Positions 2,145 to 60,527 of a stretch of DNA of 64,000 bases are shown here, one piece after another. This DNA is from a phage, in the sequence record PZ019085.1; one strand, written 5' to 3'. A program made the position numbers and the translations under genes. Under the pieces are notes generated by a model. It had not been told where the DNA came from, did no database searches, and saw nothing but the letters and a program-made list of their open reading frames with translations. How positions within the stretch are numbered: position 1 is the first letter of the stretch; every line of letters starts with the position of its first letter.

Positions 2145-3071
2145 TTAACCTACCAAAATACCTGCAGGAGGGTCCAGTAAATATAACTCTTCTCGTAAAG
2201 CTTCTTTCTCTAAACGAGCTTCTTCAATTAATCGAACACCATCAACAGTGACGCCACCGGGTAACATCATACCTTGATGTTTAGCAAGAATTTGTCCATT
2301 AAGCTCTTTAGCTAATGCAGTTGCATAATCTTTAACCCAGCGGTTGTTATATGCGCCTTGTTTAGTTGCAGGATCTTCGCCAACTCGACGTCCGACCAAA
2401 TTATGGTCTGGATTATCATAACGTTCAGAAATAGACCATGAATCACGAGGACCTACTTGACCGTACCCTACTGTATTTCCTACCATCTTATGGGTCTCGA
2501 TATAAGAGCGAACATACGATTCAACGATAATGACATCTTTCTGTCTAAAGTTACCAATTACTTTTAATTGCTCGTTTGCAGAGTTAAACCAAAAATCTGG
2601 AAGAGGAGCAATCATATCTTGAAGCATACCCATATAAGATACTAATTGAGAATAATACCCGAGATCAGCGCCAAAAGCGTTCGGCCCGTAGAATTTACCG
2701 CAATTACTACCCATACCACCTGAAACACCGGCCATTCCTAAAAGGAAATCAGTGAACCATGGATAAGTTGCATTACCATCCATTGAAGTAATAGAGCCAA
2801 CGTTTGTTCTTATAATTCTTGTTACAGCAAATACGTTAGAACCACGCATATCAAATACGCCGTGACGGTATTTTTCTTCGTCATCAACAAAAAATACATG
2901 GAAACCTTTATTCAACCCGTCAAAATGGTATTCGCCATAAAGTTCTAACGCCCGTGAAATACAATCATAAATTTGATCTGTAGTTAATTCAACATTTACA
3001 ATAGGAGCGCCTAAACGACGTAATATTACGTCCTTTAATTCTTTAGGGTTTTGTGCATTATAACCTGACAT
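2145..3071 (-). CDS. 13: neck protein (T4 gp13-like)
   Basis: 308-aa ORF; size and position of T4 gp13; start ATG at 3069-3071. Confidence 0.85.
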
Positions 3072-4552: not shown

Positions 4553-6135
4553 TATTTTACCTTAATGATATAGTTTAAAGAAATATTCCATGGGCGAGTT
4601 TCATTTCCAATTAATTCTGGACGATTCAGGGTATATTTAGAGTTACGCTGAGACGCTGGATCAATTTCATATCCATCGTTAGTAAAATACGAACGGTTAT
4701 CCCAGTCAAGTCCTTTACGAGTACCAACAAAGTTTGAACGACGAGTATTACCGAATGCTCCTGCATCGTCATGTTCACCAAAACCGCCAGCATGCTTATG
4801 ATATGACATTTGTTGTTTTTGCACTTCACCAACATATCCACCGGTACAACCGACCGCCAGACGAGGCTTACCGAATTGGTCATTACCATTAACATTAGGG
4901 TTAGTTAAATGGTTACCACGACCCGAGCCGCGAACAAATAATCCACGCATATCAGGCAAGCCTGGGTTAGAAGAGCTACCACCATATCGTGTCCCAATTC
5001 TGGAAGCATATACTGGGCATTCTGAAGCAGAAACGGTCCCACCGTGACAGAAGCGCCAGTCGGAACTCGGTAAACTATCCGCAGCCCACATTGTAATAGC
5101 GCCAACTGGAAGAATTCGGTCTAATTCATTTTGAGTCACAATACGATTGCCTTGAATATAACCACCGGACATATTGACATTACCAGTTATATTAGCGCCA
5201 CCAGAACCGACCGTCAACGTATTATTAATGCGAAGCGTGCCATTAATAGTTTGTCCGCCTCGTTGGTGGATAACATCGGCATTCCAAGCAAGGGCAGAAG
5301 AACCATCGCCACCTGATTGGCTACCCGCTTGTGTAGTTAAACGAACAACTCCACGTAAAGAAGTTGTAGCGCCACGCCCGTTTAATGTTGCACCGGTCAC
5401 TACAACTGAAGAGTTGTTACTATTTACTTCAGTCTGTGTCCCTAGTTTAACGACACCTTTATTAGTTTCTGATGCTACTGAATTCATAAAGGTATAAGGT
5501 GAAATTGCATAGCCTTCACGCAGGGTGCCTTGTTGTGCTTGAGCAACTGTAGCCAAACGAACAACACCTGTAATAGATTCGGTGGCGTCACTATTATTTG
5601 GAGCAATTTGCGAAATAAGTTTAATTGCTAATTGTTGCGTTTTTAACGGGGTCATTGCCGTTGTATCGTCAGAACCAGCTAATGCCGCGGCAGAAGTTGA
5701 AATTTTAATTACACCATTTGTTGCTTCTGTTGACACTTTTGTCTGAAATACATTGTCTATTTTTTGATTCAATTTAAGCGGAGTAATTGATGCATCGTCA
5801 ATAGCTCCGGTTACTGCTTCATCTTCAGTAGCATAACGAGTTAAGCCGTATTTGGTTTCGGTTGCATTAGGATATTGTAGACGAGCATTCAGTGATGCCG
5901 GAGTAACAGCTTTACTATTATCTAATCCATCAATAACTTCTTGTGGAGTAGCTATTTGAATAATTCCTGGTGTAGTAGTTGTTGCTTCCGGGACACCGTT
6001 AACACCTGAAGGAGAAATAGCAGCTAATGCGGCTTGGACATTAGTGATTGTATCTGGAAAATTCGACCCCGTAGGGTCGAATTCAACGTAAATTGATTCG
6101 TTTGAAACGTGTTGGTATGTATTGTTATTACTCAT
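4552..6135 (-). CDS. 12: short tail fibre (T4 gp12-like)
   Basis: 527-aa ORF; near-collinear with T4 gp12 incl. ...[24 protein letters not shown]... and C-terminal [24 protein letters not shown]. Confidence 0.9.
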
Positions 6136-20813: not shown

Positions 20814-21548
20814 ATGGAGCTAATCTTTTTAAGCGGCATCAAACGTAGTGGTAAAGACACCACCGCTGATTACATCAATTCAAACTTTAAATCCGTAAAA
20901 TATCAATTGGCATATCCGATTAAAGACGCTCTAGCAATAGCCTGGGGACGTAGGCATGCTGAAAATCCTGATGTATTCACAGAGTTGAAATACGAATACT
21001 TTGAAGGCATTGGATACGACCGTGAAACACCATTAAATCTCAATAAGTTGGATGTTATTGAATTATTGGAAGAAGCGCTAATTTATTTGCAAAGTCAATA
21101 TTTACCAATTAATAATGTTAAAGTATTATCATCGTTAGAAGGTGGATATTCGTATCTAGATATTAAACCATATGAAGCCCTGCGTGAAGCTATAAATAAT
21201 ATCAACGACACATGGTCAATCCGCCGTCTTATGCAAGCCCTCGGTACGGATGTTGTCGTTAATTTATTTGACCGTATGTATTGGGTTAAACTTTTTGCAT
21301 TAAACTATATGGATTATATTGGAAGCGATTTCGATTACTATGTTGTAACCGATACACGCCAAGTCCATGAAATGGAAACCGCTAGAGCGATGGGTGCTAC
21401 AGTTATTCATGTGGTTCGCTCTGGTACGGAATCCACCGATAAACATATTACAGAAGCTGGGTTGCCTATTGAAGAAGGCGATTTAGTTATTACAAACGAC
21501 GGCTCTTTAGAAGAGCTTTATTCTAAAATTGAAACAATCTTAAGGTAA
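20814..21548 (+). CDS. 1: deoxynucleoside monophosphate kinase
   Basis: 244 aa MELIFLSGIKRSGKDTTADYI... with P-loop; close match to T4 gp1 as recalled (..RMYWVKLFAL.., ..ARAMGATVIHVVR..). Confidence 0.9.
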   Translation: MELIFLSGIKRSGKDTTADYINSNFKSVKYQLAYPIKDALAIAWGRRHAENPDVFTELKYEYFEGIGYDRETPLNLNKLDVIELLEEALIYLQSQYLPINNVKVLSSLEGGYSYLDIKPYEALREAINNINDTWSIRRLMQALGTDVVVNLFDRMYWVKLFALNYMDYIGSDFDYYVVTDTRQVHEMETARAMGATVIHVVRSGTESTDKHITEAGLPIEEGDLVITNDGSLEELYSKIETILR

Positions 21549-21552
21549 TAAA

Positions 21553-22238
<686 letters not shown>

Positions 22239-22315: not shown

Positions 22316-22603
22316 ATGAAAACCTATAAAGAATTTATATCACCTGTTGCTAACGTTTCTACTCTGACCGAAGCAACCCTTACTTCTGAAGTTATTAAAA
22401 CAAATAAAGGACGTGAGGGTAAACCAATGATTAGTCTGGTTGACGGTGAAGAAGTAAAAGGTACTGTTTACTTAGGGGATGGATGGTCTGCTAAGAAAGA
22501 CGGCGCTACTATTGTTATCTCTCCGGCTGAAGAGACTGCATTGTTTAAAGCTAAGCATATTTCTGTAGCTCAGCTTAAAATTATTGCAAAAACTCTTCTG
22601 TAA
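22316..22603 (+). CDS. ipI: internal protein I-like (capsid targeting sequence protein)
   Basis: 95 aa starting MKTYKEFISPV, the T4 capsid-targeting-sequence motif (MKTYQEFIAE); ipI position next to 57B; length equals T4 IPI precursor. Confidence 0.7.
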   Translation: MKTYKEFISPVANVSTLTEATLTSEVIKTNKGREGKPMISLVDGEEVKGTVYLGDGWSAKKDGATIVISPAEETALFKAKHISVAQLKIIAKTLL

Positions 22604-23514: not shown

Positions 23515-24030
23515 ATGAATATTCGTTTAGGCAGTACAATTCCTAAGGGCTACGTAATTGATGTCACTACCTATGAAAATGATGGTGACAACTATAAAAC
23601 CAAAACATTGTTTGAAGTGGAAGAGCATGAGCTCCAACAGTTTAAATATCTCTTGAAGAAATTTAAGAGCCGTCATTCTAGCACCAAAGCCGAACGTTAT
23701 TGTGGTAATACACCATTCAGTGATTGCTCGCTTTTAATCTATGAATACTTGGTTGAAGGACTGTTCTCAGACCAGCTTTATCCAGAATTTATTAAAAAGG
23801 TCTTTGATATTGAAGTCGACCTCGGTAATAAATCTGAAGAAGATGAATCACGCGTATTCGACCTGTTCTTTGTGAAAGGCGATGAGATATCTCAAGGTCT
23901 TATTGATATTCTTGGCTACGCTTCTGAATACTATGATTACGATTTCTTGCGTGTAGTTGAACGTGTCGAATTTGCTTATATTGAAAAAGAAATTGTTTTG
24001 CCAACCGTTAAAATGGTTGATTTGCTTTAA
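23515..24030 (+). CDS. hypothetical protein
   Basis: 171-aa ORF, acidic; no recognised family. Confidence 0.6.
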   Translation: MNIRLGSTIPKGYVIDVTTYENDGDNYKTKTLFEVEEHELQQFKYLLKKFKSRHSSTKAERYCGNTPFSDCSLLIYEYLVEGLFSDQLYPEFIKKVFDIEVDLGNKSEEDESRVFDLFFVKGDEISQGLIDILGYASEYYDYDFLRVVERVEFAYIEKEIVLPTVKMVDLL

Positions 24031-24109: not shown

Positions 24110-24184
24110 GGCCCTGTAGCTCAATGGGAGAGCTGTCAGCTCATAACTGATAGGTAGCTGGATCGAAACCAGCCAGGGTCACCA
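24110..24184 (+). tRNA. tRNA with CAU anticodon (Met or Ile2)
   Basis: hand-folded cloverleaf: acceptor GGCCCTG/CAGGGTC, D-arm GCTC-AATGGGA-GAGC, anticodon stem GTCAG/CTGAT with loop CTCATAA, T-arm GCTGG-ATCGAAA-CCAGC, encoded CCA. Confidence 0.75.
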
Positions 24185-24187
24185 ATC

Positions 24188-24264
<77 letters not shown>

Positions 24265-25003: not shown

Positions 25004-25630
25004 ATGTATACTTTTAATGAATTTTTAGCCGAAACGGAAGTAATCACCGAAGCCGGTGTACGTATGACAAAAGAGAAATGGCAAGCTGCTTACGATGCTA
25101 TTTCTGGTACAAAAACTAGTACAGAGTTTTTCAAAAACGTTCAAGCCATGTATGGTATCGACACTTCCAGCCAAAAAGAATATTACAGAGCTTCTAAAGC
25201 ATTCAAAGATATTGTTAGTGGCGGTGTTTCTGCTAAATCGGGTTCGCCTAAAGTAAAACCTGCTCCTACCGTTCCTAAACCTGCGACCCCTAAAGCAATA
25301 GCAAAACCTGAGCCTAAGCCGGAAGTAAAAGCAACTCCTAAAGCTCCTGCTCTTAAGTTTGATACTTCTAGCCTGGAAAAAAAATATAAACAACTATCTT
25401 CGCTTGTTCGTGATATTGAATCCGATACATCTTCACTCGTTCGTGAATTCAACAGTCTTCGTAATGGCCAACATATCAACAACCTTGATACCCCAGACCT
25501 TTATCGTCTTTATTTGACTATCGAAGGTTTGAAGTATACTCAACCACTTCACGATGCGATTAAAGAAAAACTTCGTCAGGCAGGTCGTTTGGCTGCTGAC
25601 GCTGCTCAGTATGCAAAAACCCGTAAATAA
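25004..25630 (+). CDS. capsid-targeting-sequence protein with Lys/Pro-rich linker (candidate internal/injected protein)
   Basis: 208 aa; N-terminus MYTFNEFLAETE resembles the T4 CTS; central KPAPTVPKPATPKAIAKPEPKPEVKATPKAP linker; late promoter directly upstream. Confidence 0.6.
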   Translation: MYTFNEFLAETEVITEAGVRMTKEKWQAAYDAISGTKTSTEFFKNVQAMYGIDTSSQKEYYRASKAFKDIVSGGVSAKSGSPKVKPAPTVPKPATPKAIAKPEPKPEVKATPKAPALKFDTSSLEKKYKQLSSLVRDIESDTSSLVREFNSLRNGQHINNLDTPDLYRLYLTIEGLKYTQPLHDAIKEKLRQAGRLAADAAQYAKTRK

Positions 25631-25649
25631 TTAAGTTACAATCACTTAA

Positions 25650-25674
25650 GCCCCTTCCTATGGAAGGGGCTTTC
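25650..25674 (+). terminator. hairpin, possible terminator
   Basis: GCCCCTTCC...GGAAGGGGC perfect inverted repeat followed by TTTCGGG (weak U-run). Confidence 0.45.
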
Positions 25675-25708
25675 GGGCATCTAGGGCAGATAAATTTTTC
25701 ACAAAGTT

Positions 25709-25750
25709 GTTTACTTCTCCTTGAGGTATGATACTATAGACCTATCAAAA
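25709..25750 (+). promoter_or_regulatory. early promoter cassette (PeSL-like)
   Basis: GTTTAC...GATACTATAGACCTATCAAAACAAATGAGG upstream of the ATG at 25768. Confidence 0.5.
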
Positions 25751-25767
25751 CAAATGAGGAAAACATT

Positions 25768-26271
25768 ATGAGTCTTTATACTGAACTGAATAAAAAATCT
25801 GAAGAATCGCGTGACGTTGTTTTTAAAAATGTACAAAAGCGTATTTTGGAAAAGATGTATGATGCTGCATCTAAAGGTGAAAAATCATGCCGCTTTCCGA
25901 TGAGATGTTCTACAGATTTATGCTCAAATACTATTGAATGGTTAGAAAGCGAAGGTCTTACTGTAGAGAAAAACCCGGCGACTTCTATTGACGGTGAATC
26001 ATATATTAGTATTTCTTGGGATAAACCACAGGTTAATGAGAAAGACGGTGATTGGGTTGTGGATGTTAAGACTTCTGACGGTGGACGTTCTGTTGAAGTT
26101 TCAGCCGTAGTTAAAGGTACACATGGGCAAAATAGCTGGGGGTGTGGTGGTGAAGAAAAAGAAATTGTTCTTAGTGTGATTGCAAGGTCCACTAGCAATA
26201 AAATTGCCCAGAGCATCATCTATGCTGCGTGCATTGAAGCTGGAAAAATTTGCAAAATTAAAAATAAATGA
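25768..26271 (+). CDS. hypothetical protein
   Basis: 167-aa ORF; several Cys (CRFPMRCSTDLC, WGCGG); no recognised family. Confidence 0.6.
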   Translation: MSLYTELNKKSEESRDVVFKNVQKRILEKMYDAASKGEKSCRFPMRCSTDLCSNTIEWLESEGLTVEKNPATSIDGESYISISWDKPQVNEKDGDWVVDVKTSDGGRSVEVSAVVKGTHGQNSWGCGGEEKEIVLSVIARSTSNKIAQSIIYAACIEAGKICKIKNK

Positions 26272-26310
26272 TGTACAAACACCAAGGACGGTGTTACTAT
26301 AGACCTATCA
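26271..26310 (+). promoter_or_regulatory. early promoter cassette (PeSL-like)
   Basis: ATGTAC...GGTGTTACTATAGACCTATCAAATCAAATGAGAGG upstream of the ATG at 26333. Confidence 0.5.
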
Positions 26311-26606: not shown

Positions 26607-26630
26607 AACCACCAATTGAAAGGTAATAAT

Positions 26631-27224
26631 ATGAACACACTGAAGAAACTTGTTGAATTCATCCGCACTAAACTGGGTACCGCTATGGCTAAAAATCTGA
26701 CTGTCGAAGAACAGTATAACGCAGCTGCAGATAAGTTGATTACCCAAATCAAAGAACTAAAAACGGCTTCTGTTAAATCTATTAATGAAGAAAAACGTAT
26801 TCGTGAACTTGTTAATGAAAAGAACAAACAAGCCGCTTCTAAGGAACGTGAAATTCGTAAGCTCCTGGCTGAAGGACAGGATGTTACCATGCATGCTAAG
26901 CTTGGTCTTCTGTATCGTCGAACTGCCGAACAACTTAATACAAAAGCTGACGGGTATGCCGCTATGCGAATTGAAATTGCTCGTAAGGTGGTTGAACTTG
27001 ACGATGCTCGTCAGAACCTGGCAATCAAACTCGAATACATTCGTGAAACTCGAGCAGCCAATGCCCTTGGTATCTCTACGGCTGATGATGTAATTGAAAT
27101 CGCTGCACTGACTAAGGTTGATATCGAAGACACTCTGACTCGTGTTGAAACGTTCAATGGCACTCCAGCTGGTGTCGAAACCACTTCTGCTGATGTACAA
27201 GAATATATTAACTCTTTGAAATAA
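26631..27224 (+). CDS. coiled-coil protein, hypothetical
   Basis: 197 aa from ATG 26631; largely helical, charged heptad-like sequence. Confidence 0.6.
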
Positions 27225-27232
27225 AATAATAC

Positions 27233-27254
27233 GGAGGACTCCGGTCCTCCTTTT
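27233..27254 (+). terminator. rho-independent terminator
   Basis: GGAGGAC-TCCG-GTCCTCC hairpin followed by TTTT. Confidence 0.6.
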
Positions 27255-27273
27255 GGATAATAAAGGAGTTAAC

Positions 27274-27870
27274 ATGCGAAACCAAAATAATGATATTGAC
27301 TCAATGTTCGAAGAGTTCCGAAATAAGGTAAATCCACCTACGTCTTTAGTTGATTCATTACGATATGTTGCAACTGGACGTAAATGGTACTGGTCGTCTT
27401 CTTATGAGACCACTGAATATGCAAATCGCCGAAAATCTTTATTAGCCCCAGGTATTATGATTCATGATATCGGAGCTATTGCTAAACTAGTTGCAGACCA
27501 TGATATTAGATTCACCGATTTCGTTGCTCCTACGTGGTCTGTTTGTTGTTTAAACACTGAATTGGAATATATCAGCGAACGCTCTGAAGATTATTATGGT
27601 TTTAGAGATAAGCTTCTGAGGTCTAATATGTTTTATATCGATACAGAAGTTCTAGTCGATAATAAAAAATATTACTTTACGTTAATCGTCGATTCTGAAA
27701 CTATGTATGAAGGCAAGCCCTTGCTTAAAAGAGTTGATGCTTTAAGTGCTATTGATGCGCTTTATGAAACCATGATTGTTAGTCCTAATTTCACTAACAA
27801 TTTAATCCTTGAGCAATTTATTATGGAATGTAGAGAATATGTCAAAGCCAACCCTGTACATGCCAATTAA
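27274..27870 (+). CDS. hypothetical protein
   Basis: 198 aa from ATG 27274 (SD AAAGGAG). Confidence 0.6.
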   Translation: MRNQNNDIDSMFEEFRNKVNPPTSLVDSLRYVATGRKWYWSSSYETTEYANRRKSLLAPGIMIHDIGAIAKLVADHDIRFTDFVAPTWSVCCLNTELEYISERSEDYYGFRDKLLRSNMFYIDTEVLVDNKKYYFTLIVDSETMYEGKPLLKRVDALSAIDALYETMIVSPNFTNNLILEQFIMECREYVKANPVHAN

Positions 27871-31027: not shown

Positions 31028-31714
31028 ATGAATAGTTCTAAAGTGTTTAATAGCCAAGCTCGTGCAGTAGGTGGTTTTGCTGGTAAAATTTCTAATGATA
31101 AAATCAAAAACGAAACTATGTTCTTCAACAGCTCATTGGCTTTCGCTTTTGATAATGGTGGCCCAATTACTCGTAGCTTCATCATGAACTTGCCGGATGA
31201 TTGGAACACTGACCAGGTTGTATTTGATTCACGAGTCCACATGCTGATGCCTGGTTGGTATCCTGCTATTCCTGGATATCACCATGATGACGTACCACGT
31301 CCTGATATTCCAGTTGGTCAACACTTTATTACTGCAGGACAACCTGATTATGACAATCCTCGTTACCATTCTGAACATATTCTTGGTCTTGTTAACGCTG
31401 ATGTGTGTCCTACTCATTTTGCAACAGGAACTGCAGAGTTCAGTCAGATTCCTGATGGCGAACTTATCTATCGTCAGTGGCACAAAGAAGTCCTCGAAAA
31501 AATTGAAAAAGGTGAACTAGAGAAATGGGAAGCTCCAGATCGTACTCTTCTTCAGTTTGATTGGCAAACATGGCACACTGGTTCTCGTGCAATTAGTAAT
31601 GGATGGCGTTGGTTCGGACGTGTATCTCGTAATACAGACCGAGTTAAAAAGATTACCAATGAAATTCGTGTCAATGCCCAAGTTTATCTGGAATTCCCTA
31701 TGGAAGGCTGGTAA
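31028..31714 (+). CDS. hypothetical protein with His/Asp-rich motifs
   Basis: 228 aa; GWYPAIPGYHHDD and CPTHFATG motifs, Trp-rich C-terminus; no family recognised. Confidence 0.6.
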   Translation: MNSSKVFNSQARAVGGFAGKISNDKIKNETMFFNSSLAFAFDNGGPITRSFIMNLPDDWNTDQVVFDSRVHMLMPGWYPAIPGYHHDDVPRPDIPVGQHFITAGQPDYDNPRYHSEHILGLVNADVCPTHFATGTAEFSQIPDGELIYRQWHKEVLEKIEKGELEKWEAPDRTLLQFDWQTWHTGSRAISNGWRWFGRVSRNTDRVKKITNEIRVNAQVYLEFPMEGW

Positions 31715-34165: not shown

Positions 34166-34426
34166 ATGAAAATGTATCAAGAATTTATCGCTGAAGCAGA
34201 TGACAAAGGTCCTAAATTTAAAGTTAAAGCTTTCATTGGTGATGCGGAAGACTTTGGCTCATTAAAACGTAATGGGTATTTTTTCTTAGGTGGCGATGGT
34301 AAAGAAATCAACACCTATGCAAAACGTAGTGAAATTGCTTATGTTGTAGCAAGCCCTAAAGTAGATGTTGACGATATTGGATACGATTTTAACAACTTCG
34401 GAATTATTTCTGGCGGTAAAGCTTAA
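34166..34426 (+). CDS. internal protein-like (capsid targeting sequence protein)
   Basis: 86 aa MKMYQEFIAEADDKG...; CTS motif. Confidence 0.65.
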   Translation: MKMYQEFIAEADDKGPKFKVKAFIGDAEDFGSLKRNGYFFLGGDGKEINTYAKRSEIAYVVASPKVDVDDIGYDFNNFGIISGGKA

Positions 34427-34429
34427 ACG

Positions 34430-34459
34430 GTTTACGCTTAAGTATTAATATAGTATAAT
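34430..34459 (+). promoter_or_regulatory. sigma70-like early promoter
   Basis: GTTTAC, 18-bp spacer, TATAAT. Confidence 0.55.
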
Positions 34460-34489
34460 TACTCTATCAAAACAAACAAGGAAACAAAA

Positions 34490-34804
34490 ATGAAAACGTA
34501 TAAAGAATTTATTGCAGAATCCGCCAACCAACGCGTTGAAGGTGGTTATATTTGGATTGAACAAGTTGAGCCGCCGAGCCGCACTTCTACAGGTAAATGG
34601 AAAATTACTGTTGATGGTCCTGGCGGTAAACGTAGGACTCTTAAAGAAATTAACGGGTACTATGAAGAAGCTCTTTCGGATGCAGGAACTTACATGATGC
34701 AAATCATGATTAAAAACCCTGAAAACCGTTTTGCAGCTAAAGTCTTCCGCCGTATTGGTAATAAACTTTATGATGCATACTCTAAAAACTTCCCTAAAGA
34801 ATAA
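34490..34804 (+). CDS. internal protein-like (capsid targeting sequence protein)
   Basis: 104 aa MKTYKEFIAESANQRVEGG...; CTS motif. Confidence 0.65.
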   Translation: MKTYKEFIAESANQRVEGGYIWIEQVEPPSRTSTGKWKITVDGPGGKRRTLKEINGYYEEALSDAGTYMMQIMIKNPENRFAAKVFRRIGNKLYDAYSKNFPKE

Positions 34805-34829
34805 CATAAATTAAAACAATAGGAACAAA

Positions 34830-35159
34830 ATGAAAACATATCAAGAGTTTATCACTGAAGTTACATTATCTGCGGAACAGAAAGCTGCTATCGAAGAAGG
34901 TAAAAATCCCAAAGTAACATATAAAGTAAATAGTAAAGGCGTTTTTGATGACTTGGTTCAAGACCCTGAATTGAAAAAGGCTCTTTCTAAAACTAATGCG
35001 TACTTTGCTCCTAAATTTAACACAGCCGGTGTACTTATTGGATTGGATGTATTCAACTCTAAAGGTGTTCTATCTAATGCCTTTGGTTATGCCGCTAACA
35101 AAATTACCAAAGCCGCATGGGAATCCAATACTAAACAAGCTCAAAAGCCTAGAGTATAA
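34830..35159 (+). CDS. internal protein-like (capsid targeting sequence protein)
   Basis: 109 aa MKTYQEFITEVTLSAEQ...; CTS motif. Confidence 0.65.
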   Translation: MKTYQEFITEVTLSAEQKAAIEEGKNPKVTYKVNSKGVFDDLVQDPELKKALSKTNAYFAPKFNTAGVLIGLDVFNSKGVLSNAFGYAANKITKAAWESNTKQAQKPRV

Positions 35160-35331
35160 TTCTTGCCTAATAAAGGGAAACGCAACCTCTCCTTATGAAC
35201 GTCGAGTCCTCTGAGTGATGTACCTTTTCCAACCTGTAATAAGGTCGAGCGCAATGCGGTAATGGGTTTACATAGCGAGTCGAAGGACATAACATGTGCC
35301 ACGGAATGGCCCAAACCTTAAGAGAAATAAT

Positions 35332-46429: not shown

Positions 46430-47425
46430 ATGAGCATTACATCTGATGCGGTAAAACATGAAATTAACGGTTTATGTGCTTCACAGATTAAAGTGTGGTT
46501 TAAAGACCATAATGATCGCAGAGCACTTAATTATGAGCAAATTGCTATCCAAGTTCATCAATTACTGACTAGTAAATTTGATTTTCATATGCCATCTGAA
46601 ATCTATACTAATCTGCCGCGAGCACTTATTAAAGCGTGTAAAGGTTATGGAAAATCAATGGCCGATGGAATCTTCAGCGCGCTGAATAAACTTAACGTTC
46701 TGTCGATGATTAACTCTAACAATATCCTGCGTAATCTAGGACGTACTGATTTGTTCGGTCGTGAACAGTGTAAAATGCCTTTGAAATGGATTGTTGCTCA
46801 TCTTAACGAGAACCAAACACGTTTTCTGGCCGTATCAGCACGCTTACAAATGGGCCTAGATCGTCAGATGAACTTTAAAACTCATCCACGTTATTCAGGT
46901 TCAACAGACTTTTATAAATGTGAGCTTCAAAAGGTTGCAGGTAAAACTGTCTTGGTAGTTCGTGTAACGTTTGAAGGACGACGTCAAGGATATTTTGACC
47001 TAATCGGCTCTGGTCTCAAACATTGTGGATTTATCGACGAAGTTGATATCAAGCGAGACGGCACTGGATACCGTATTGGATATGTTTGCACTCTTAAAGA
47101 AGAGATTTCGGGACCAGCACCAGGACTAAAAGATGTTAGATATAAAGACGAGCTCGTTGAAGAAATAAAAGAAGTTGAATATGATATCAACCAAGAAGAT
47201 GCTCTTAAAGACCTTATTGACGAACTAAACCAAGACGTTATTCCGGTTCAGAAATTTGAATCAAAACATGCTGAGCAAATCAAATACTTTGAAGCTTTGA
47301 TTAACGAACTTAATGTAACTATTCAACAGACTGATGATGAAATCTCACGATTAGCAGGCTTAAATGGTAAAAATAAAACGGAACGAGCTAATCTTATTCA
47401 AGTAGTAAAACTTCTTAAGGAATGA
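46430..47425 (+). CDS. hypothetical protein with C-terminal coiled coil
   Basis: 331-aa ORF; Cys-containing N-terminal domain; acidic C-terminal heptad region ...EEIKEVEYDINQEDALKDLIDELNQ... Confidence 0.6.
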   Translation: MSITSDAVKHEINGLCASQIKVWFKDHNDRRALNYEQIAIQVHQLLTSKFDFHMPSEIYTNLPRALIKACKGYGKSMADGIFSALNKLNVLSMINSNNILRNLGRTDLFGREQCKMPLKWIVAHLNENQTRFLAVSARLQMGLDRQMNFKTHPRYSGSTDFYKCELQKVAGKTVLVVRVTFEGRRQGYFDLIGSGLKHCGFIDEVDIKRDGTGYRIGYVCTLKEEISGPAPGLKDVRYKDELVEEIKEVEYDINQEDALKDLIDELNQDVIPVQKFESKHAEQIKYFEALINELNVTIQQTDDEISRLAGLNGKNKTERANLIQVVKLLKE

Positions 47426-47480: not shown

Positions 47481-48455
47481 ATGGCTTTTATTACACGTAG
47501 AGAACTTATCAAAGAATTTACCTCGAACGCATATACCCCAGGACCTAATCCTATCCGTATGCCTGTAAAGACTCCTGAAGAGATTGAGGAAATCTGTTCA
47601 TATTATGGGATTAATTCTCGTATGTTTACTCAATTTGAATGCATTACTAACACACCCGTTAAAGAGTTCATTAAAAATGGTGAGTTCAGCCGTTTATTAG
47701 CCAAACAGAAACTTCGTAATTTTTGTATCGGCGGTGAAGGACAATATTTCGCTAAACAGTTCCGAAATAACCTTAACAATCTGATGGCCATTGCTTCTCG
47801 TATTCGTCCTCAAGCAATTAACATGAAACATTTGAAATATACTTACGATAAGTTAGAAATCATGGTTATCAGTGAGAACGAGTTCACTCTTACATATAAT
47901 CCTAAGAATGATAACGTTGCTCGTGTATTCCACCAAGCACTAGAAGTTTTAGGCGATAATATCCACCAGATTAAAGCGATTTATTCTCGTGAGCTTAATA
48001 TTATTGACCCTATCAAGAATAAGGGCAATATCGCTATCCAGGCTCGTGTATCTATTGGTAAAAAGGTTCCTGCGCCATGGTGGCACAAAGACTCTGAATA
48101 CTATCAAAATCTTAAAAAGGAAAATGCATTGTTTGAAGCATCGCTTACTGGGACCCCAATTGAACAGGCCGAAGTCCTAAGTGCTTATTCTACTTCGGGT
48201 AAATCAATGTTTAAAGGTTTGCCAAATGTGTGCAAACTGTCTGCAGTAAAACTAAATGTTTCTAATGACCTTCTTCCGGCCGAAGATTACCATTACAATC
48301 AAATCAAGGCCACTATGGACCAACTGTCTGTTGAACTTGACAAAGCACAAGCTAAGCTTCGTGATGCTCAAAGTGTTGTAACGAATCTCCAGTTGCAGTA
48401 TTCTAAACTTTTTAACGCAATGAATGCATTAAAATCATGGATGGTTGGAGTATAA
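47481..48455 (+). CDS. hypothetical protein with C-terminal coiled coil
   Basis: 324-aa ORF; C-terminus ...QLSVELDKAQAKLRDAQSVVTNLQLQYSKLFNAMNALKSW. Confidence 0.6.
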   Translation: MAFITRRELIKEFTSNAYTPGPNPIRMPVKTPEEIEEICSYYGINSRMFTQFECITNTPVKEFIKNGEFSRLLAKQKLRNFCIGGEGQYFAKQFRNNLNNLMAIASRIRPQAINMKHLKYTYDKLEIMVISENEFTLTYNPKNDNVARVFHQALEVLGDNIHQIKAIYSRELNIIDPIKNKGNIAIQARVSIGKKVPAPWWHKDSEYYQNLKKENALFEASLTGTPIEQAEVLSAYSTSGKSMFKGLPNVCKLSAVKLNVSNDLLPAEDYHYNQIKATMDQLSVELDKAQAKLRDAQSVVTNLQLQYSKLFNAMNALKSWMVGV

Positions 48456-48484: not shown

Positions 48485-49435
48485 ATGACACGTTCACATT
48501 ACATTGAATACTTTGCCGGTCTTATCGCTAACGTTCATGCCCAACGTGCTTCTGGTTCATTAGGATTTGATGTTCCACATCGAGTTGTAGTAAGTGGTAT
48601 TCTTCGAGATTTTGGTACATACACAGGCCAAGAAAATCATATCTGTAAAGATACTCAAAATGCGTATTCTCATTCATTAGGGACACTGCTTCAATGGTTC
48701 AAACGTTCTCGTTTATTATCTTCTACTGTGGCTCGTGATAACATTAAAAACTTTATGAAGCCCAGCTTTATTAAATCTGTGACATCTAAAACCGATTTAG
48801 TTGAATTTACTATTATTAACGATGTTAAAAAGACTCATTTGGCCGATTGGTTATCTACCATTCCTGAAACTAAATTTGCTGATAAATTTGCTTGTGAATT
48901 CAATAACCAAGTGAATATGCTTTTTAAACATTCTCGTAAATTATTCACAGGCGGCGATGATCGTACAAATAAAGTTCATGTTAAAGATTGGGTTACTGCA
49001 GTATTCAAACCAACCGGTAATGGTAACGCATCATTGTCAATTGATATCCAGGTTCCTTATTACTACTCACGTAATCTCGGCACCATGAAAGCTGAAGAAA
49101 TTAAGAAGCACAATAAAACCATTCGTTCGCTGTCTTATAAACTTCGCATGATGTTACAGACTATGGATGTTGTTGAAATGTTCGACGAAACCGAAGATAA
49201 TGGTTCAATGTTATTCAGTTCTCGAATTAAAATTAAACTGAAGAACCCTAACGAGTATAAGCCTAAGCCTATTAAAGAGCCTAAAGCAGAAAAAGTTGAT
49301 AACTTAAGAGAAGAACGCGAATATCTCAAATCCCGTCTGAAAGAAGTCGAAGCCCAGATTGCAGAACAAACTAAATCGTTAAAAGCTCTGAATGCGAAAG
49401 CGGACGGTTTAAGAAATGCCATTGAGGTTTTATAA
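48485..49435 (+). CDS. hypothetical protein with C-terminal coiled coil
   Basis: 316-aa ORF; C-terminus ...KVDNLREEREYLKSRLKEVEAQIAEQTKSLKALNAKADGLRNAIEVL. Confidence 0.6.
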   Translation: MTRSHYIEYFAGLIANVHAQRASGSLGFDVPHRVVVSGILRDFGTYTGQENHICKDTQNAYSHSLGTLLQWFKRSRLLSSTVARDNIKNFMKPSFIKSVTSKTDLVEFTIINDVKKTHLADWLSTIPETKFADKFACEFNNQVNMLFKHSRKLFTGGDDRTNKVHVKDWVTAVFKPTGNGNASLSIDIQVPYYYSRNLGTMKAEEIKKHNKTIRSLSYKLRMMLQTMDVVEMFDETEDNGSMLFSSRIKIKLKNPNEYKPKPIKEPKAEKVDNLREEREYLKSRLKEVEAQIAEQTKSLKALNAKADGLRNAIEVL

Positions 49436-57369: not shown

Positions 57370-57635
57370 AACTATCTCGAATCGCTATAACTGAAGAAAA
57401 GCTGGGCGAATTTTACGTCGACAACTTTATGAAAGTCACGTATTTTCCATTCGTTAAAGGTGTTGGTTTTTGGGAAACTCATGTATCTCAATTAAACGAA
57501 GGCGACTATAACGAAACACATGAGAACTTTTTAGATTTTCTTTATAATGCCGGTCTTACTGAGCTTTATATCGATATCCATGAGTTCAAACGTTTAATGG
57601 AAAAAGTGTTTCAGGCTTATTGTTTGCTCCGATAG
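57366..57635 (+). CDS. hypothetical protein
   Basis: 89-aa ORF. Confidence 0.55.
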   Translation: MKLSRIAITEEKLGEFYVDNFMKVTYFPFVKGVGFWETHVSQLNEGDYNETHENFLDFLYNAGLTELYIDIHEFKRLMEKVFQAYCLLR

Positions 57636-57642
57636 TATCTCG

Positions 57643-57690
57643 TGCTTTAAGATAGGTCTCTAAATATTATGATATAATAGACCTATGAAT
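57643..57690 (+). promoter_or_regulatory. promoter region upstream of gene 55 (MotA-box-like + palindrome)
   Basis: TGCTTTA (exact MotA box core) then ATAGGTCTC...TATTAT..TATAAT..AGACCTAT palindrome. Confidence 0.45.
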
Positions 57691-57707
57691 TGAGCCAAGA
57701 GGTACTT

Positions 57708-58265
57708 ATGACTGAACAAAAACCTAAAAATAACTATGTGAATAATAAAGAGCTTCTCGCCGCTATAATCGAGTGGAAAAAGGAGCTCTTAAATAATAAA
57801 GACCCAAACAAAATTATTCGTCAGAATGATACCATCGGTTTAGCAATTATGCTTATTGCCGAAGGCCTGTCTAAACGTTTCAACTTTTCAGGATATACCC
57901 AGTCTTGGAAGCAGGAGATGATTGCAGATGGGATTGAAGCCTCTATTAAGGGACTTCATAATTTCGACGAAACTAAGTACAATAACCCACATGCATACAT
58001 AACTCGAGCTTGTTTTAATGCTTTTGTCCAACGTATCAAAAAAGAACGTAAGGAAGTTGCAAAGAAATATAGTTACTTCGTTCATAATGTCTACGACAGT
58101 CATGACGATGATATGGTAGCGTTAGTAGATGAAACGTTTATTCAAGACATCTACGATAAAATGACGCATTATGAAGAATCCGCTTATAAAGCTCCTGGGG
58201 CTGAAAAGAAGGAAGTTGTTAGCGATTCGCCTAGTTTGGATTTTTTATATGAGGATGACAATTGA
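57708..58265 (+). CDS. 55: late sigma factor gp55
   Basis: 185 aa from [27 protein letters not shown]...; near-collinear with T4 gp55 as recalled. Confidence 0.95.
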
Positions 58266-58464
58266 CATCTCTAACTACTTAGAAGAACCTTTTGACGAAG
58301 CAATCCCTTATTTGGTAAAACTGTTGGGTCGTGAATTTAAAATTAATTTTGACATCGACCCTTTGAACCCACATGACGTGTCATTTTCAATAAATGGGAC
58401 TCCAGTTGAGTACGAGTTCTGTATTGAAGAGGATGGACGTTTTTATTTTAATTTAATGAGATAA
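58255..58464 (+). CDS. hypothetical protein
   Basis: 69 aa from ATG 58255 (SD GAGGA) overlapping the gene 55 stop. Confidence 0.5.
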
Positions 58465-58465
58465 T

Positions 58466-58789
58466 ATGACTACCGAGATTATTGAAAATAAAGAAGCAGA
58501 AGATGCAGTAGCTAAAATGCTACAAGAAATCCAAAAGAAAAATGAAGCTGAAGCACGTAAAAAATCCGAAAAGATTCTTAAAAAGAATCGTTTTGAACTA
58601 AACCGTCTTTATGCCCACGCTCAAGAAGCAGCAATTCAAAACAACTTCGAAGCTTACGAATATGCTATTAAGAAATCTCGGGATATTCTACGACAACCAT
58701 ATAATGACAAGTTAATTAAAATCCAGTGGGTTACTACTCGTCAGGCTATTGAGGACATTATTAATGGCACTAGTTCAAACAAAGTTTAA
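58466..58789 (+). CDS. hypothetical protein
   Basis: 107-aa ORF; Lys/Glu-rich helical. Confidence 0.55.
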   Translation: MTTEIIENKEAEDAVAKMLQEIQKKNEAEARKKSEKILKKNRFELNRLYAHAQEAAIQNNFEAYEYAIKKSRDILRQPYNDKLIKIQWVTTRQAIEDIINGTSSNKV

Positions 58790-58970
58790 ACGTCTGAAGC
58801 TGAACGCGGGGTTCACCATTAAATTGGGAGGTCCTCTTTGTGTTAAAATTTCTGAAAAGGAATATCACGACGGTTCTATTACAGAAATTTGTCCGCCTAT
58901 TGTAAAGGCAGACCCAAAACAACTCGTGTGGGTCGATTCATTTCAAGTTAAGAAATGGTGGAAACGATGA
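58764..58970 (+). CDS. hypothetical protein
   Basis: 68 aa from ATG 58764. Confidence 0.45.
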   Translation: MALVQTKFKRLKLNAGFTIKLGGPLCVKISEKEYHDGSITEICPPIVKADPKQLVWVDSFQVKKWWKR

Positions 58971-59009
58971 GAGAAATTGATTTAGGCATTTTCTGAGAGG
59001 TGCTTATGC

Positions 59010-59183
59010 ATGACGAACATCCCGATTTCTGAAAATTTCGATAAAATCCGTAAAGGCAAAGCAGAAAGAATGAGACGTTTTAAAGAGTCTTATGATAAAG
59101 CTAAAGCCGAAGGAACTATTACATACAAGCCCATTCGATTTAAAAGTTCAAATGAGCCTCTGTACGGTGTACTATGTGGATAG
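59010..59183 (+). CDS. 57-aa basic small protein
   Basis: MTNIPISENFDKIRKGKAERMRRFKESYDKAKAEGTITYKPIRFKSSNEPLYGVLCG; SD GAGAGG; terminator immediately downstream. Confidence 0.4.
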   Translation: MTNIPISENFDKIRKGKAERMRRFKESYDKAKAEGTITYKPIRFKSSNEPLYGVLCG

Positions 59184-59207
59184 GAACTCTTCGGAGTTCC
59201 TTTTTTT
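59183..59207 (+). terminator. rho-independent terminator
   Basis: GGAACTC-TTCG-GAGTTCC hairpin followed by TTTTTTT. Confidence 0.7.
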
Positions 59208-59230
59208 GCTTTATAAACGGATGATAGAAT
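59207..59230 (+). promoter_or_regulatory. middle-type promoter (MotA box + -10) for 47/46
   Basis: TGCTTTA then 11 nt then TAGAAT, 24 nt upstream of the gene 47 ATG. Confidence 0.45.
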
Positions 59231-59253
59231 GAATTAACTAATGAGGAAATAAT

Positions 59254-60273
59254 ATGAAAATTTTAAATTTAGGTGATTGGCATTTAGGTGTTAAAGCCGA
59301 TGATGAGTGGGTTCAATCCATTCAGTTGGATGGAATTAAGCAGGCGATAGAATATTCTAAGAAAAATGGAATTACTACATGGATTCAATACGGCGATATT
59401 TTTGATGTGCGAAAAGCAATCACGCATAAAACTATGGAGTTCGCACGTGAAATAGTTCAAATGCTTGATGATGCTGGTATTACCCTACATACTGTTGTAG
59501 GAAACCATGATATGCACTTTAAAAATACTTTAACTCCAAACGCTTCTACTGAGCTTTTAGCTAAATATCCTAATGTTAAAGTATATGATAAGCCTACTAC
59601 AGTAGATTTTGACGGATGTTTGATTGATTTAATTCCTTGGATGTGCGAAGAAAATACTGGTGAAATCTTAGAGCACATCAAGACTTCTTCTGCTGCGTAT
59701 TGTGTTGGGCACTGGGAACTGAATGGCTTTTATTTCTATAAAGGAATGAAGTCTCATGGGCTTGAACCTGATTTCTTAAAGACCTATAAACAAGTCTGGT
59801 CTGGCCACTTCCACACAATCTCTGAAGCTGCTAACGTCAAATATATTGGGACACCATGGACCCTTACTGCAGGCGATGAGAACGACCCACGCGGATTCTG
59901 GGTATTTGACACTGATGTTGAACGTATGGAATTTATTCCTAATGAAACAACATGGCATCGACGAATCACTTATCCGTTTAAAGGCAAAATCAATTATTCT
60001 GATTATACTAATCTAGCCGTACGTGTTATAGTATCAGAAATTGATTCAGAGTTGACTAAGTTTGAATCTGAACTTGAAAAAGTAGTTCACTCTCTTCGTA
60101 TGGTTTCTAAAGTTGATAACAGTGTTGAATCTGATGACGACCAGGAAATCGAGATTAAATCACTTCAAGATATCATTAAAGAATATATTGACGCGATTCC
60201 AGATATCTCAGACGAAGACAGAGAAGCGCTGGTCAAATATTCCAACGAACTTTATATTGAGGCAACACAATGA
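59254..60273 (+). CDS. 47: recombination endonuclease subunit (Mre11-like, T4 gp47)
   Basis: 339 aa MKILNLGDWHLG...; phosphoesterase motifs (GDxHxG, GNHD); length equals T4 gp47. Confidence 0.95.
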   Translation: MKILNLGDWHLGVKADDEWVQSIQLDGIKQAIEYSKKNGITTWIQYGDIFDVRKAITHKTMEFAREIVQMLDDAGITLHTVVGNHDMHFKNTLTPNASTELLAKYPNVKVYDKPTTVDFDGCLIDLIPWMCEENTGEILEHIKTSSAAYCVGHWELNGFYFYKGMKSHGLEPDFLKTYKQVWSGHFHTISEAANVKYIGTPWTLTAGDENDPRGFWVFDTDVERMEFIPNETTWHRRITYPFKGKINYSDYTNLAVRVIVSEIDSELTKFESELEKVVHSLRMVSKVDNSVESDDDQEIEIKSLQDIIKEYIDAIPDISDEDREALVKYSNELYIEATQ

Positions 60274-60527
60274 CTTTAGATGAATTTAACAATGCTGGAC
60301 TCAGGCTTGAAGTTGAAATGGACGTTAAAGATGATGATGGATTCGAGAACACTATCAAGTATTGGATTGAGCCATTACGCGTTGAAGGCAATGAAGTTAA
60401 AGCAGTTCATGTCTGCACCGACTGGGCCATTGAATTTAGCTTTAATATAATGGACAACGATACTCCTGGCTCTATTCTTAAAATGGCCGAAGCGTGTATT
60501 GAGGATGCGTATAATGACGAAGACTGA
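60270..60527 (+). CDS. hypothetical acidic protein
   Basis: 85-aa ORF between 47 and 46. Confidence 0.55.
   Translation: MTLDEFNNAGLRLEVEMDVKDDDGFENTIKYWIEPLRVEGNEVKAVHVCTDWAIEFSFNIMDNDTPGSILKMAEACIEDAYNDED

Follow-up and report, generated by a model that had tools for sequence, protein, structure and literature searches.

Gene Content of the Interval between Genes 55 and 47

Between gene 55, encoding a late sigma factor, and gene 47, encoding an SbcD-like nuclease subunit, the window (the whole stretch of DNA that was analyzed, 64 kb of a genome of roughly 168 kb) contains four small ORFs, a predicted intrinsic terminator, and a MotA-type promoter motif (Table 1). The longest ORF inside this interval is 107 aa. 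The a-gt gene, which had been described as lying between 55 and 47 in T4, is indeed found there in the T4 gene order, and is truly missing at this position in the window. The preliminary description had listed only four ORFs of 69, 107, 68, and 57 aa and a terminator, and this inventory was reproduced, the first ORF matching positions 58255–58464 and the three others the positions given in Table 1.

Table 1. Features of the gene 55 to gene 47 locus and of two other genes of the window. Percentages are amino acid identities to the named protein.
Feature	Position	Strand	Evidence and remarks
Gene 1, dNMP kinase, 244 aa	20814–21548	+	Collinear with JS09_026 (deoxynucleoside monophosphate kinase)
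ipI homolog, internal head protein, 95 aa	22316–22603	+	Collinear with JS09_029 (IpI internal head protein); putative anti-GmrSD role
Gene 55, late sigma factor gp55, 185 aa	57708–58265	+	T4 gp55 90.7% (tblastn, 57708–58253); same annotation in JS09, RB69, and mar005P1
a-gt.5 homolog	58249–58464	+	T4 a-gt.5 46.6%, E 1e-14 (tblastn, 58249–58461); DUF5491 E 5.8e-13; phrog_1169 E 1e-24
a-gt.4 homolog, 107 aa	58466–58789	+	T4 a-gt.4 57.7%, E 2e-32 (tblastn, 58478–58768); DUF2654 E 1e-27; phrog_951 E 1.3e-36
a-gt.3 homolog, 68 aa	58764–58970	+	T4 a-gt.3 70.8%, E 3e-29 (tblastn, 58770–58964); phrog_1648 E 4.9e-34
a-gt.2 homolog, 57 aa	59010–59183	+	T4 a-gt.2 74.1%, E 2e-23 (tblastn, 59022–59180); DUF5486 E 7e-28; phrog_2140 E 1.2e-32
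Predicted intrinsic terminator, AGGAACTC-UUCG-GAGUUCCU stem-loop, then T7 run	59182–59207	+	Terminator scan
Predicted MotA-type middle-promoter motif, TGCTTTA-N11-TAGAAT	59207–59230	+	Pattern search; placed to drive genes 47-46
Indel junction, 34 bp in place of 2252-bp T4 block (mobB, a-gt, 47.1)	59218–59251	+	blastn versus T4
Gene 47, SbcD-like nuclease subunit, 339 aa	59254–60273	+	T4 gp47 85.8% (tblastn, 59254–60270); JS09 gp47 100%; Pfam Metallophos
Tequatrovirus-derived recombination patch, gene 47 5′ ~410 nt	59254–59660	+	Abuts the a-gt-less junction

The four small ORFs look like real genes, judging from their Pfam and PHROG profiles and from synteny in five genera. Pfam bit scores were 49–97 against cut-offs of 25–27 (DUF5491, DUF2654, and DUF5486; E 6e-13 to 7e-28), the a-gt.3 homolog matching no family in the Pfam scan, and all four ORFs matched PHROGs with E values from 1e-24 to 1e-36. 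For a-gt.5, homology with T4 makes the ATG at 58249 (71 aa) a more likely start than the ATG at 58255 (69 aa); the 5′ end of this gene overlaps the 3′ end of gene 55, as it also does in T4. The families of a-gt.5 to a-gt.2 are recorded in Pfam and PHROGs only as DUFs or as being of unknown function, and a full-text literature search on their function returned a single paper, where a-gt.4 is given as conserved among T4-like phages, its function being unknown (PMC1524935). One further PHROG match of a-gt.2, annotated as "head maturation protease", was weak, partial, and limited to 34 residues, and was set aside.

Only 70 nt (59184–59253) separate the stop codon of a-gt.2 from the start of gene 47, and they are filled by the terminator and the promoter motif. 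The terminator hairpin (59182–59201) has an 8-bp stem and a UUCG loop, with a folding energy of −13.2 kcal/mol (z = −2.5), and a similar hairpin is found 3′ of a-gt.2 in T4 and 3′ of a-gt in T4 and in phage Mineola. Following the consensus of T4 middle promoters, we searched for a MotA box (TGCTTtA) followed, after 11–13 bp, by a TAnnnT −10 element. This pattern matched 12 times in the window, versus 3.7 matches expected, and the match at 59207–59230 is intergenic and kept in RB69, Dhakavirus, and T4. If both motifs work as their sequences suggest, the interval would be an ordinary early/middle transcription unit comprising four small genes, a terminator, and a MotA-type promoter, the latter restarting transcription into genes 47-46 past the terminator.

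Comparison of the Locus with Other T-Even Phages

By its sequence, the window is part of the genome of an RB69-like T-even phage of the genus Mosigvirus. The best matches were Mosigvirus records (94.6–98.7% nucleotide identity), and the window is collinear with positions 71724–136232 of the complete JS09 genome at 95–98.6% identity, apart from short variable stretches, such as 25630–26307 and 34216–35229 of the window, that align poorly or not at all. No record of the phage collection was identical to the window, the closest reaching 98.7%. Two tRNA genes are present in the window, the same number as in Mosigvirus NP (PMC13390438).

The gene order at the locus is the same in RB69 (RB69p067–p071), JS09, and mar005P1, an arrangement that has figured in the annotation of the RB69 reference genome since 2003. 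In RB69 (NC_004928, RB69p066–p071), genes 55, a-gt.5, a-gt.4, a-gt.3, and a-gt.2 are likewise followed by a hairpin, a MotA-type promoter, and gene 47. The intergenic sequence departs from that of the window at only two points, the T-run (one T) and the −10 element (one base); identity is 94.2% over 57600–60300 at the nucleotide level and 88.8% between the gene 47 products. In JS09 and its subclade (TU01, RPN187, ST0, phi25-307, and DCP548), the locus is 98–98.7% identical to that of the window. The a-gt-less interval was found at ≥90% nucleotide identity in approximately 153 records of the phage collection, of which approximately 147 span it in one piece.

T4 shares with the window genes 55 and 47, a-gt.5 to a-gt.2 in the same order and orientation, and a UUCG hairpin and MotA-box cassette after a-gt.2. 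However, the T4 order is 55, a-gt.5, a-gt.4, a-gt.3, a-gt.2, mobB, a-gt, 47.1, and 47, and T4, unlike the window, has an extra 2.25 kb with three genes, namely mobB for an HNH homing endonuclease, a-gt for a 400-aa protein with a GT-B fold, and 47.1, together with a second hairpin/promoter cassette after a-gt that the window lacks. Homology with T4 ends at position 59217 of the window and restarts at 59252, the T4 counterparts being 1798 and 4051 (blastn, reverse-complement locus). The Klebsiella phage Mineola (Jiaodavirus) also has 55, a-gt.5 to a-gt.2, and 47 in this order with a terminator before 47, but carries a-gt (66% amino acid identity to T4 a-gt) straight after a-gt.2, at the same site as T4. 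The 55–47 intervals of Dhakavirus (UGJNEcP4) and Karamvirus (UFV01) resemble that of the window in having four small ORFs and no a-gt. The Dhakavirus promoter cassette is close to that of the window, but is separated from gene 47 by a retained, unannotated 47.1 homolog; Karamvirus has approximately 160 nt there, whereas in the window the promoter and ribosome binding site run directly into gene 47. The term "canonical locus" used for a-gt in the preliminary description is thus appropriate for Tequatrovirus and Jiaodavirus, but not for Mosigvirus, Dhakavirus, and Karamvirus, all of which are a-gt-less at this site.

Search for Glucosyltransferase Genes

The window, positions 1–45,000 of RB69, and the complete JS09 genome were searched for glucosyltransferase genes by tblastn (E ≤ 10). 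In the whole 64-kb window, the best match to T4 a-gt, mobB, and 47.1 had an E value of 0.3, that of a-gt being 0.53. In complete JS09, T4 a-gt, b-gt, mobB, and 47.1 gave no match at E ≤ 1e-3, the best chance matches having E values of at least 0.75 (1.4 for a-gt), and T2 ba-gt reached only 0.85, i.e., no homolog. Neither T4 b-gt nor T2 ba-gt matched at E ≤ 1e-3 in any of the three sequences (best E 0.85); the canonical b-gt site, beside gene 42, is outside the window. As the matches were at chance level alone, we rejected the possibility that a-gt, b-gt, or ba-gt had diverged or moved elsewhere in the sequences searched. RB69, like the window, is devoid of these genes: it was reported to have no a-gt or b-gt homolog and to contain arabinose (Thomas et al., PMC6024577).

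We also considered a glycosyltransferase hidden among ten large ORFs of the window that are unannotated or tentatively named (RB69ORF134c, nrdC.11, nrdC.10, nrdC.6, nrdC.5, nrdC.3, e.6, e.5, ORF132c, and a JS98-like ORF), but none matched a glycosyltransferase Pfam family. Several of them, including nrdC.3, nrdC.6, e.5, and e.6, matched no Pfam family at all, and for these the role is excluded only by lack of sequence similarity and by their T4-ortholog names; T4, from which these names come, has its own a-gt and b-gt.

Cytosine Hypermodification in Mosigvirus

Mosigvirus phages are already known to lack a-gt, and the missing gene is real but ordinary. Published LC-MS/NMR work revealed arabinosylated 5-hydroxycytosine in RB69 DNA (PMC13326640) and 5-ara-dC and 5-ara-ara-dC in the DNA of Mosigvirus NP (PMC13390438). 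These phages have no a-gt because arabinose is placed on 5-hydroxycytosine, and not glucose on hydroxymethylcytosine (hmC), whereas T4 makes glucosyl-hmC via gp42, a-gt, and b-gt. In this pathway, the thymidylate-synthase homolog gp48 of RB69, the counterpart of gene 42, makes 5-hydroxy-dCMP, and the modified base then enters DNA. One or two arabinose residues are subsequently attached by the arabinosyltransferases gp46:47 and gp3, with a sugar donor supplied by a phage-encoded arabinose gene cluster (gp50–55).

In close relatives, the arabinosylation genes occupy two sites that fall outside the window, one flanked by uvsX and gene 43 and the other by rIIA and gene 39. In JS09, the set begins approximately 5 kb past the position of the 3′ end of the window (about 4.8 kb past the end of gene 45). 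RB69 gp3, gp28, gp45, gp46, gp47, gp48, gp50, gp51, gp52, gp53, and gp55 are all present in JS09 with 97–100% amino acid identity (98–100% for the two arabinosyltransferases and the arabinose-donor genes), and gp49, which has no assigned role, is found there in two pieces (88–94%). The JS09 counterpart of gene 42 shares 24.8% identity with T4 gp42 and 99.2% with RB69 gp48; its residues aligned with ThyA D169 and N177 are N and D, respectively. An N at the D169-equivalent position is a signature of 5hodCMP synthases (PMC13326640), and the Mosigvirus gene 42 counterpart is a 5-hydroxy-dCMP synthase and not a dCMP hydroxymethylase. The preliminary description had proposed searching the complete genome for glucosyltransferase and dCMP hydroxymethylase genes. 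In the complete close relative JS09, the first query found none; the second is misleading, because the counterpart that it would find is the 5-hydroxy-dCMP synthase.

Two genes of the window itself may also be related to DNA modification. Gene 1 (RB69p159) is the only window gene in the list of the modified-dCMP pathway established by Lee et al. (Table 1 of PMC13326640). The window also contains an ipI homolog. The T4 counterpart, IPI*, blocks GmrSD, a type IV enzyme. An IPI homolog is also encoded by RB69 (PMC13326640).

In a survey of 50,697 phage records, a-gt and the arabinosyltransferases were distributed in a complementary fashion. The a-gt gene was found in 657 records, at ≥90% identity in Tequatrovirus and at 60–80% in Klebsiella-phage records (also in Raoultella phages); the one Klebsiella-phage record that was inspected, Mineola, belongs to Jiaodavirus. 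Of the arabinosyltransferases, RB69 gp3 reached ≥95% in 156 records and AraT1 did so in 154, including the nearest relatives of the window (DCP548, PNJ-6, ST0, phi25-307, and phage 55). Outside Mosigvirus, some phages of Escherichia, Enterobacter, and Klebsiella also had AraT1 homologs (60–80% amino acid identity).

Taken together, these data indicate that the window very probably comes from a Mosigvirus-type phage that has no a-gt anywhere and carries a different cytosine hypermodification, arabinosyl-5-hydroxycytosine. By analogy with its relatives, the other ~100 kb of this genome would contain the same arabinosylation cluster and no a-gt. Of the two alternatives raised in the preliminary description, an absence of alpha-glucosylation is supported, indirectly yet strongly, by the gene content of JS09, its collinearity with the window, and the published chemistry of Mosigvirus, whereas an a-gt located elsewhere found no support in the window or in complete JS09.

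Alternative Explanations

It could be argued that the phage alpha-glucosylates hmC by means of an a-gt relocated to the ~100 kb outside the window, since the window is only part of the genome, and the patch of Tequatrovirus-type DNA in gene 47 (see below) attests to a past exchange with a-gt carriers, so that acquisition of the gene elsewhere is possible in principle. However, no homolog of a-gt, b-gt, or ba-gt is present in the complete, collinear JS09 genome, none is found in RB69 (Thomas et al., PMC6024577), and the 657 a-gt matches fall either at ≥90% or at 60–80%, with no band fitting Mosigvirus. Moreover, the substrate of a-gt is hmC in DNA, and a phage whose gp42 is replaced by a 5-hydroxy-dCMP synthase would not make it (PMC13326640). 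Relocation is, therefore, extremely unlikely. Even harder to sustain, with a negligible probability, is the idea that a phage normally endowed with a-gt at this site lost it by a deletion confined to this isolate or by an assembly artefact. The near-identical hairpin-plus-promoter cassettes that flank the T4 block could support such a deletion, but RB69 and JS09 share the junction sequence of the window, the whole interval is contained in one piece in approximately 147 records, and Dhakavirus and Karamvirus are likewise without a-gt at this site. Because independent genomes have kept this junction, the explanation was ruled out.

A phage with neither a-gt nor a working arabinosylation system, whose DNA would contain unmodified cytosine or bare 5-hydroxycytosine, is also very improbable. 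The arabinosylation genes do sit outside the window, and the split ORFs 046/047 and 052/053 of the RB69 reference record show that database records can contain frameshifts at these genes. However, the 154–156 Mosigvirus records that carry both arabinosyltransferases at ≥95% amino acid identity are roughly as many as those that share the locus, and Lee et al. ascribe the split of RB69 ORF 46/47 to a sequencing error (PMC13326640). The retention of gene 1 (dNMP kinase) and ipI in the window also fits a modified-DNA lifestyle.

Consequences for Annotation and Defence Sensitivity

The finding bears chiefly on annotation. A T4-like genome in which a-gt is missing from this locus is best annotated as that of a probable arabinosyl-5-hydroxycytosine (Mosigvirus-type) phage, and not as unmodified or hmC-only, and a "dCMP hydroxymethylase" homolog in such phages as a 5-hydroxy-dCMP synthase. 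The altered sensitivity to modification-dependent defence anticipated for this phage has in fact been published for Mosigvirus phages: the alpha-glucosyl-hmC glycosylase Brig1 fails to restrict Bas46 and Bas47 (PMC11078745), and the GmrSD-family enzyme BrxU cleaves arabinosylated DNA (PMC13390438). It is thus already documented that such phages escape Brig1, stay sensitive to BrxU, and resist many type II enzymes, a defence profile that bears on the choice of phages for therapy and on phage engineering.

Recombination Patch in Gene 47

Over its first ~410 nt, gene 47 shares just 66–77% identity with RB69, because a Tequatrovirus-type patch is located there; the same stretch is 96–98% identical to many Tequatrovirus phages. 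Among the sites that differ between RB69 and pSs-1, all but two of those classified are of the Tequatrovirus type up to nt 405, and almost all are of the RB69 type from nt 414 onwards. The patch demonstrates past DNA exchange between this lineage and carriers of a-gt.

The ~410 nt of Tequatrovirus gene 47 were acquired by the subclade of the window, the left edge of the patch lies exactly at the a-gt-less junction, and the T4 a-gt block is bracketed by the two hairpin-plus-middle-promoter cassettes and adjoins mobB. We tentatively consider, as a possible but rather unlikely reading, that the 55–47 junction is an active exchange point between T-even genera with chemically different DNA modifications. 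Coinfection with glucosyl-hmC phages might lead to endonuclease- or cassette-mediated gene conversion, with a-gt being repeatedly excluded, as it would have no substrate in a 5-hydroxycytosine phage. If true, the published view of RB69-type phages as genetically isolated from those of the T4 type would need to be qualified. Finally, in some cyanophage records the gene 47 match overlaps the annotated gene 55, a hint that the 55–47 interval grew by insertions.

Gene Content of the Interval between Genes 55 and 47

In T4, the genes are arranged in the order 55, a-gt.5, a-gt.4, a-gt.3, a-gt.2, mobB (encoding an HNH homing endonuclease), a-gt (alpha-glucosyltransferase), 47.1, and 47. A blastn comparison showed that homology to T4 stopped at position 59217 of the window and restarted at 59252; therefore, 34 bp of the window replace a 2252-bp T4 block containing mobB, a-gt, and 47.1. 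These three T4 genes had no match anywhere in the 64-kb window by tblastn, and no glycosyltransferase domain was detected in ten large window ORFs that were unannotated or tentatively named. The lack of a-gt between 55 and 47, as reported in the preliminary description, was thus fully borne out, and the small ORFs found there have exactly the lengths that it had listed (69, 107, 68, and 57 aa).

These four ORFs matched the Pfam families DUF5491, DUF2654, and DUF5486 well over curated cut-offs, and PHROGs 1169, 951, 1648, and 2140 with E-values of 1e-24 to 1e-36, all of which are families of unknown function. Judging from these matches, they should be genuine conserved genes. The 70-nt spacer between a-gt.2 and gene 47 contains a predicted terminator and a MotA-type motif that overlaps the terminator T-run; the corresponding pattern was found 12 times in the window versus 3.7 expected. 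The interval would be an ordinary early/middle transcription unit of four conserved small genes, terminated at its 3' end, and the middle promoter past the terminator would allow transcription to resume into the 47-46 nuclease genes.

Features of the window and of related loci. Identities are amino acid identities to the T4 counterparts.
Feature	Position	Strand	Description
Gene 55	57708-58265	+	185 aa; 90.7%
a-gt.5 homolog	58249 or 58255 to 58464	+	71 or 69 aa; 46.6%
a-gt.4 homolog	58466-58789	+	107 aa; 57.7%
a-gt.3 homolog	58764-58970	+	68 aa; 70.8%
a-gt.2 homolog	59010-59183	+	57 aa; 74.1%
Intrinsic terminator	59182-59207	+	AGGAACTC-UUCG-GAGUUCCU + T7 run; predicted from sequence
MotA-type middle-promoter motif	59207-59230	+	TGCTTTA-N11-TAGAAT; predicted from sequence
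Gene 47	59254-60273	+	339 aa; 85.8%
Gene 1	20814-21548	+	dNMP kinase; RB69p159 in the list of Lee et al. (PMC13326640)
ipI homolog	22316-22603	+	Internal protein I; 95 aa
tRNA genes	24110-24264	+	Met(CAT) and Arg(TCT), adjacent
ORFs without Pfam family	46430-47425, 48485-49435, 25004-25630, 26616-27870, 31028-31714	+	nrdC.6, nrdC.3, e.6, e.5, and RB69ORF132c homologs, JS98-like ORF
T4 cassettes	23681-23731 and 21586-21624 (T4 locus record L003)	-	Hairpin-promoter cassettes
47.1 homolog	about 2860-3003 (Dhakavirus locus record L010)		UGJNEcP4; MELLLGYVVLFMAFYTFTRACWIGFFSTPDGFISIILFCIAITVLGL

Absence of a-gt across the Genus and Evolution of the Locus

The window, including this locus, shares 94.6-98.7% nucleotide identity with genomes of Mosigvirus (RB69-like Tevenvirinae), and it is collinear over its entire length with positions 71724-136232 of the relative JS09 (95-98.6% identity). 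In RB69, RB69p066-p071 are likewise annotated as 47, a-gt.2, a-gt.3, a-gt.4, a-gt.5, and 55, with nearly the same intergenic sequence. Because this arrangement matches and approximately 147 records span the interval in one piece, the absence of a-gt is a trait of the genus, not a quirk of one sequence; it is an already known, documented property of RB69-like phages.

The a-gt gene occupies this very site in Tequatrovirus (T4, pSs-1) and Jiaodavirus (Mineola, 66% aa identity), and is absent from it in Mosigvirus, Dhakavirus, and Karamvirus. The description of the locus as canonical thus holds for the former two genera only. T4 carries two "UUCG hairpin + MotA box + -10" cassettes, after a-gt.2 and after a-gt, flanking mobB and a-gt, whereas a single hairpin-promoter cassette is present in Mosigvirus (59182-59230 in the window, and RB69) and Dhakavirus. 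This pattern looks like the footprint of a cassette-mediated insertion or deletion. Gain or loss of the block via recombination between repeated regulatory cassettes would fit. Dhakavirus UGJNEcP4 has an unannotated homolog of T4 47.1 between a-gt.2 and 47, whereas Mosigvirus, including the window, is devoid of 47.1 and the same promoter/RBS runs straight into gene 47.

At its 5' end, over ~410 nt (59254-59660), gene 47 showed 96-98% nucleotide identity to many Tequatrovirus phages (such as pSs-1, ime09, ECML-134, and Shfl2) versus 66-77% to RB69, and the remainder, from ~nt 414, was 96-100% identical to RB69. When the 266 gene 47 sites differing between RB69 and pSs-1 were mapped, all classified sites up to nt 405 save two were of Tequatrovirus type, and nearly all from nt 414 were of RB69 type. 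The patch is clearly a tract of gene conversion between genera. On the left, its edge coincides with the a-gt-less junction, where inter-genus homology ends, and this gp47 is common, at ≥99% identity, to only 17 records (the JS09 subclade). The patch shows that this subclade recombined with glucosyl-hmC phages, yet gained no a-gt.

Search for a-gt Elsewhere and DNA Modification

Two alternatives had been proposed, namely that a-gt lies elsewhere or that the phage does not alpha-glucosylate its DNA. The complete JS09 genome, joined from four pieces, was used as a stand-in for the remaining ~100 kb of the phage. T4 a-gt, b-gt (beta-glucosyltransferase), mobB, and 47.1, and T2 ba-gt (beta-glucosyl-HMC-alpha-glucosyltransferase), gave only chance matches in JS09 (E ≥ 0.75). 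All RB69 genes assigned to cytosine arabinosylation were found there with 97-100% aa identity (gp3, gp28 (dCTPase), gp45 (kinase), gp46:47, gp48, gp50, gp51, gp52:53, and gp55); gp49, to which no role has been assigned, matched as two pieces with 88-94% identity. The main cluster begins 4.8 kb downstream of gene 45, just past the 3' end of the window, and the gp3 homolog sits between gene 39 and rIIA.1. The gp48 protein (JS09_0136) is only 24.8% identical to T4 gp42, and in the alignment it has N at the ThyA D169 equivalent and D at the N177 position, a signature of 5-hydroxy-dCMP synthase (Lee et al., PMC13326640).

RB69 was reported to lack recognizable homologs of a-gt, b-gt, and ba-gt and to contain arabinose in its DNA, ORF003c, with a homolog in JS09, being the likely transferase (Thomas et al. 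2018, PMC6024577). Mono- and poly-arabinosylated 5-hydroxycytosine were then found in RB69 DNA; the ThyA homolog gp48 makes 5-hydroxycytosine at the mononucleotide level, gp46:47 and gp3 were assigned as arabinosyltransferases, and gp50-55 to sugar donor synthesis (Lee et al. 2026, PMC13326640). In an independent study, 5-ara-dC and 5-ara-ara-dC were detected at 1:4 in Mosigvirus NP (PMC13390438). The JS09 gene content and this published chemistry support the second alternative, a phage that does not alpha-glucosylate its DNA. It is highly probable that its DNA is modified by an arabinosyl-5-hydroxycytosine pathway encoded outside the window; the window itself contains only two pathway-related genes, gene 1 and the ipI homolog. 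The T4 counterpart of the latter, IPI*, is an inhibitor of GmrSD, a type IV enzyme.

The proposal that the absence of a-gt alters sensitivity to modification-dependent defence was correct and had already been demonstrated, since Brig1, an alpha-glucosyl-hmC glycosylase, restricts BASEL Tequatrovirus phages but not Mosigvirus Bas46/Bas47 (PMC11078745), and NP is still sensitive to, and cut by, the GmrSD-family enzyme BrxU (PMC13390438, AEM 2026).

Distribution across Phage Records

Over 50,697 phage records, T4 a-gt matched 657. Among these, 502 were Tequatrovirus matches at ≥90% and 143 came from Klebsiella/Raoultella phages at 60-80%; the single member of the latter group that was inspected is a Jiaodavirus. 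RB69 gp3 and the first arabinosyltransferase, AraT1 (JS09_0137), were found at ≥95% in 156 and 154 records, respectively, and the a-gt-less 55-47 interval at ≥90% nucleotide identity in about 153. The a-gt and arabinosylation systems are complementary across these records. DCP548, PNJ-6, ST0, phi25-307, and phage 55, which are among the nearest relatives of the window, were named in the arabinosyltransferase match lists, and, outside Mosigvirus, AraT1 homologs with 60-80% aa identity were observed in phages of Escherichia, Enterobacter, and Klebsiella.

Other Features of the Window

Six plus-strand ORFs of 200-330 aa matched no Pfam family at E ≤ 0.01. Only two tRNA genes are present in the window, in agreement with the two reported for NP; the Tequatrovirus phages studied alongside NP have ten (PMC13390438). 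By megablast, 25630-26307, 34216-35229, and ~48194-48261 gave a poor alignment to JS09 or none, with only 87.8% identity over 25703-26029, for example; such stretches look like small segments, variable or hyperplastic, that separate blocks of 95-98% identity. Finally, a 90-bp segment of the wac/gp12 region (4702-4791) matched JS09 169059-169148, at the extreme end of that record and not at the collinear position; the cause is probably a quirk of the JS09 assembly or of the boundary of its record.
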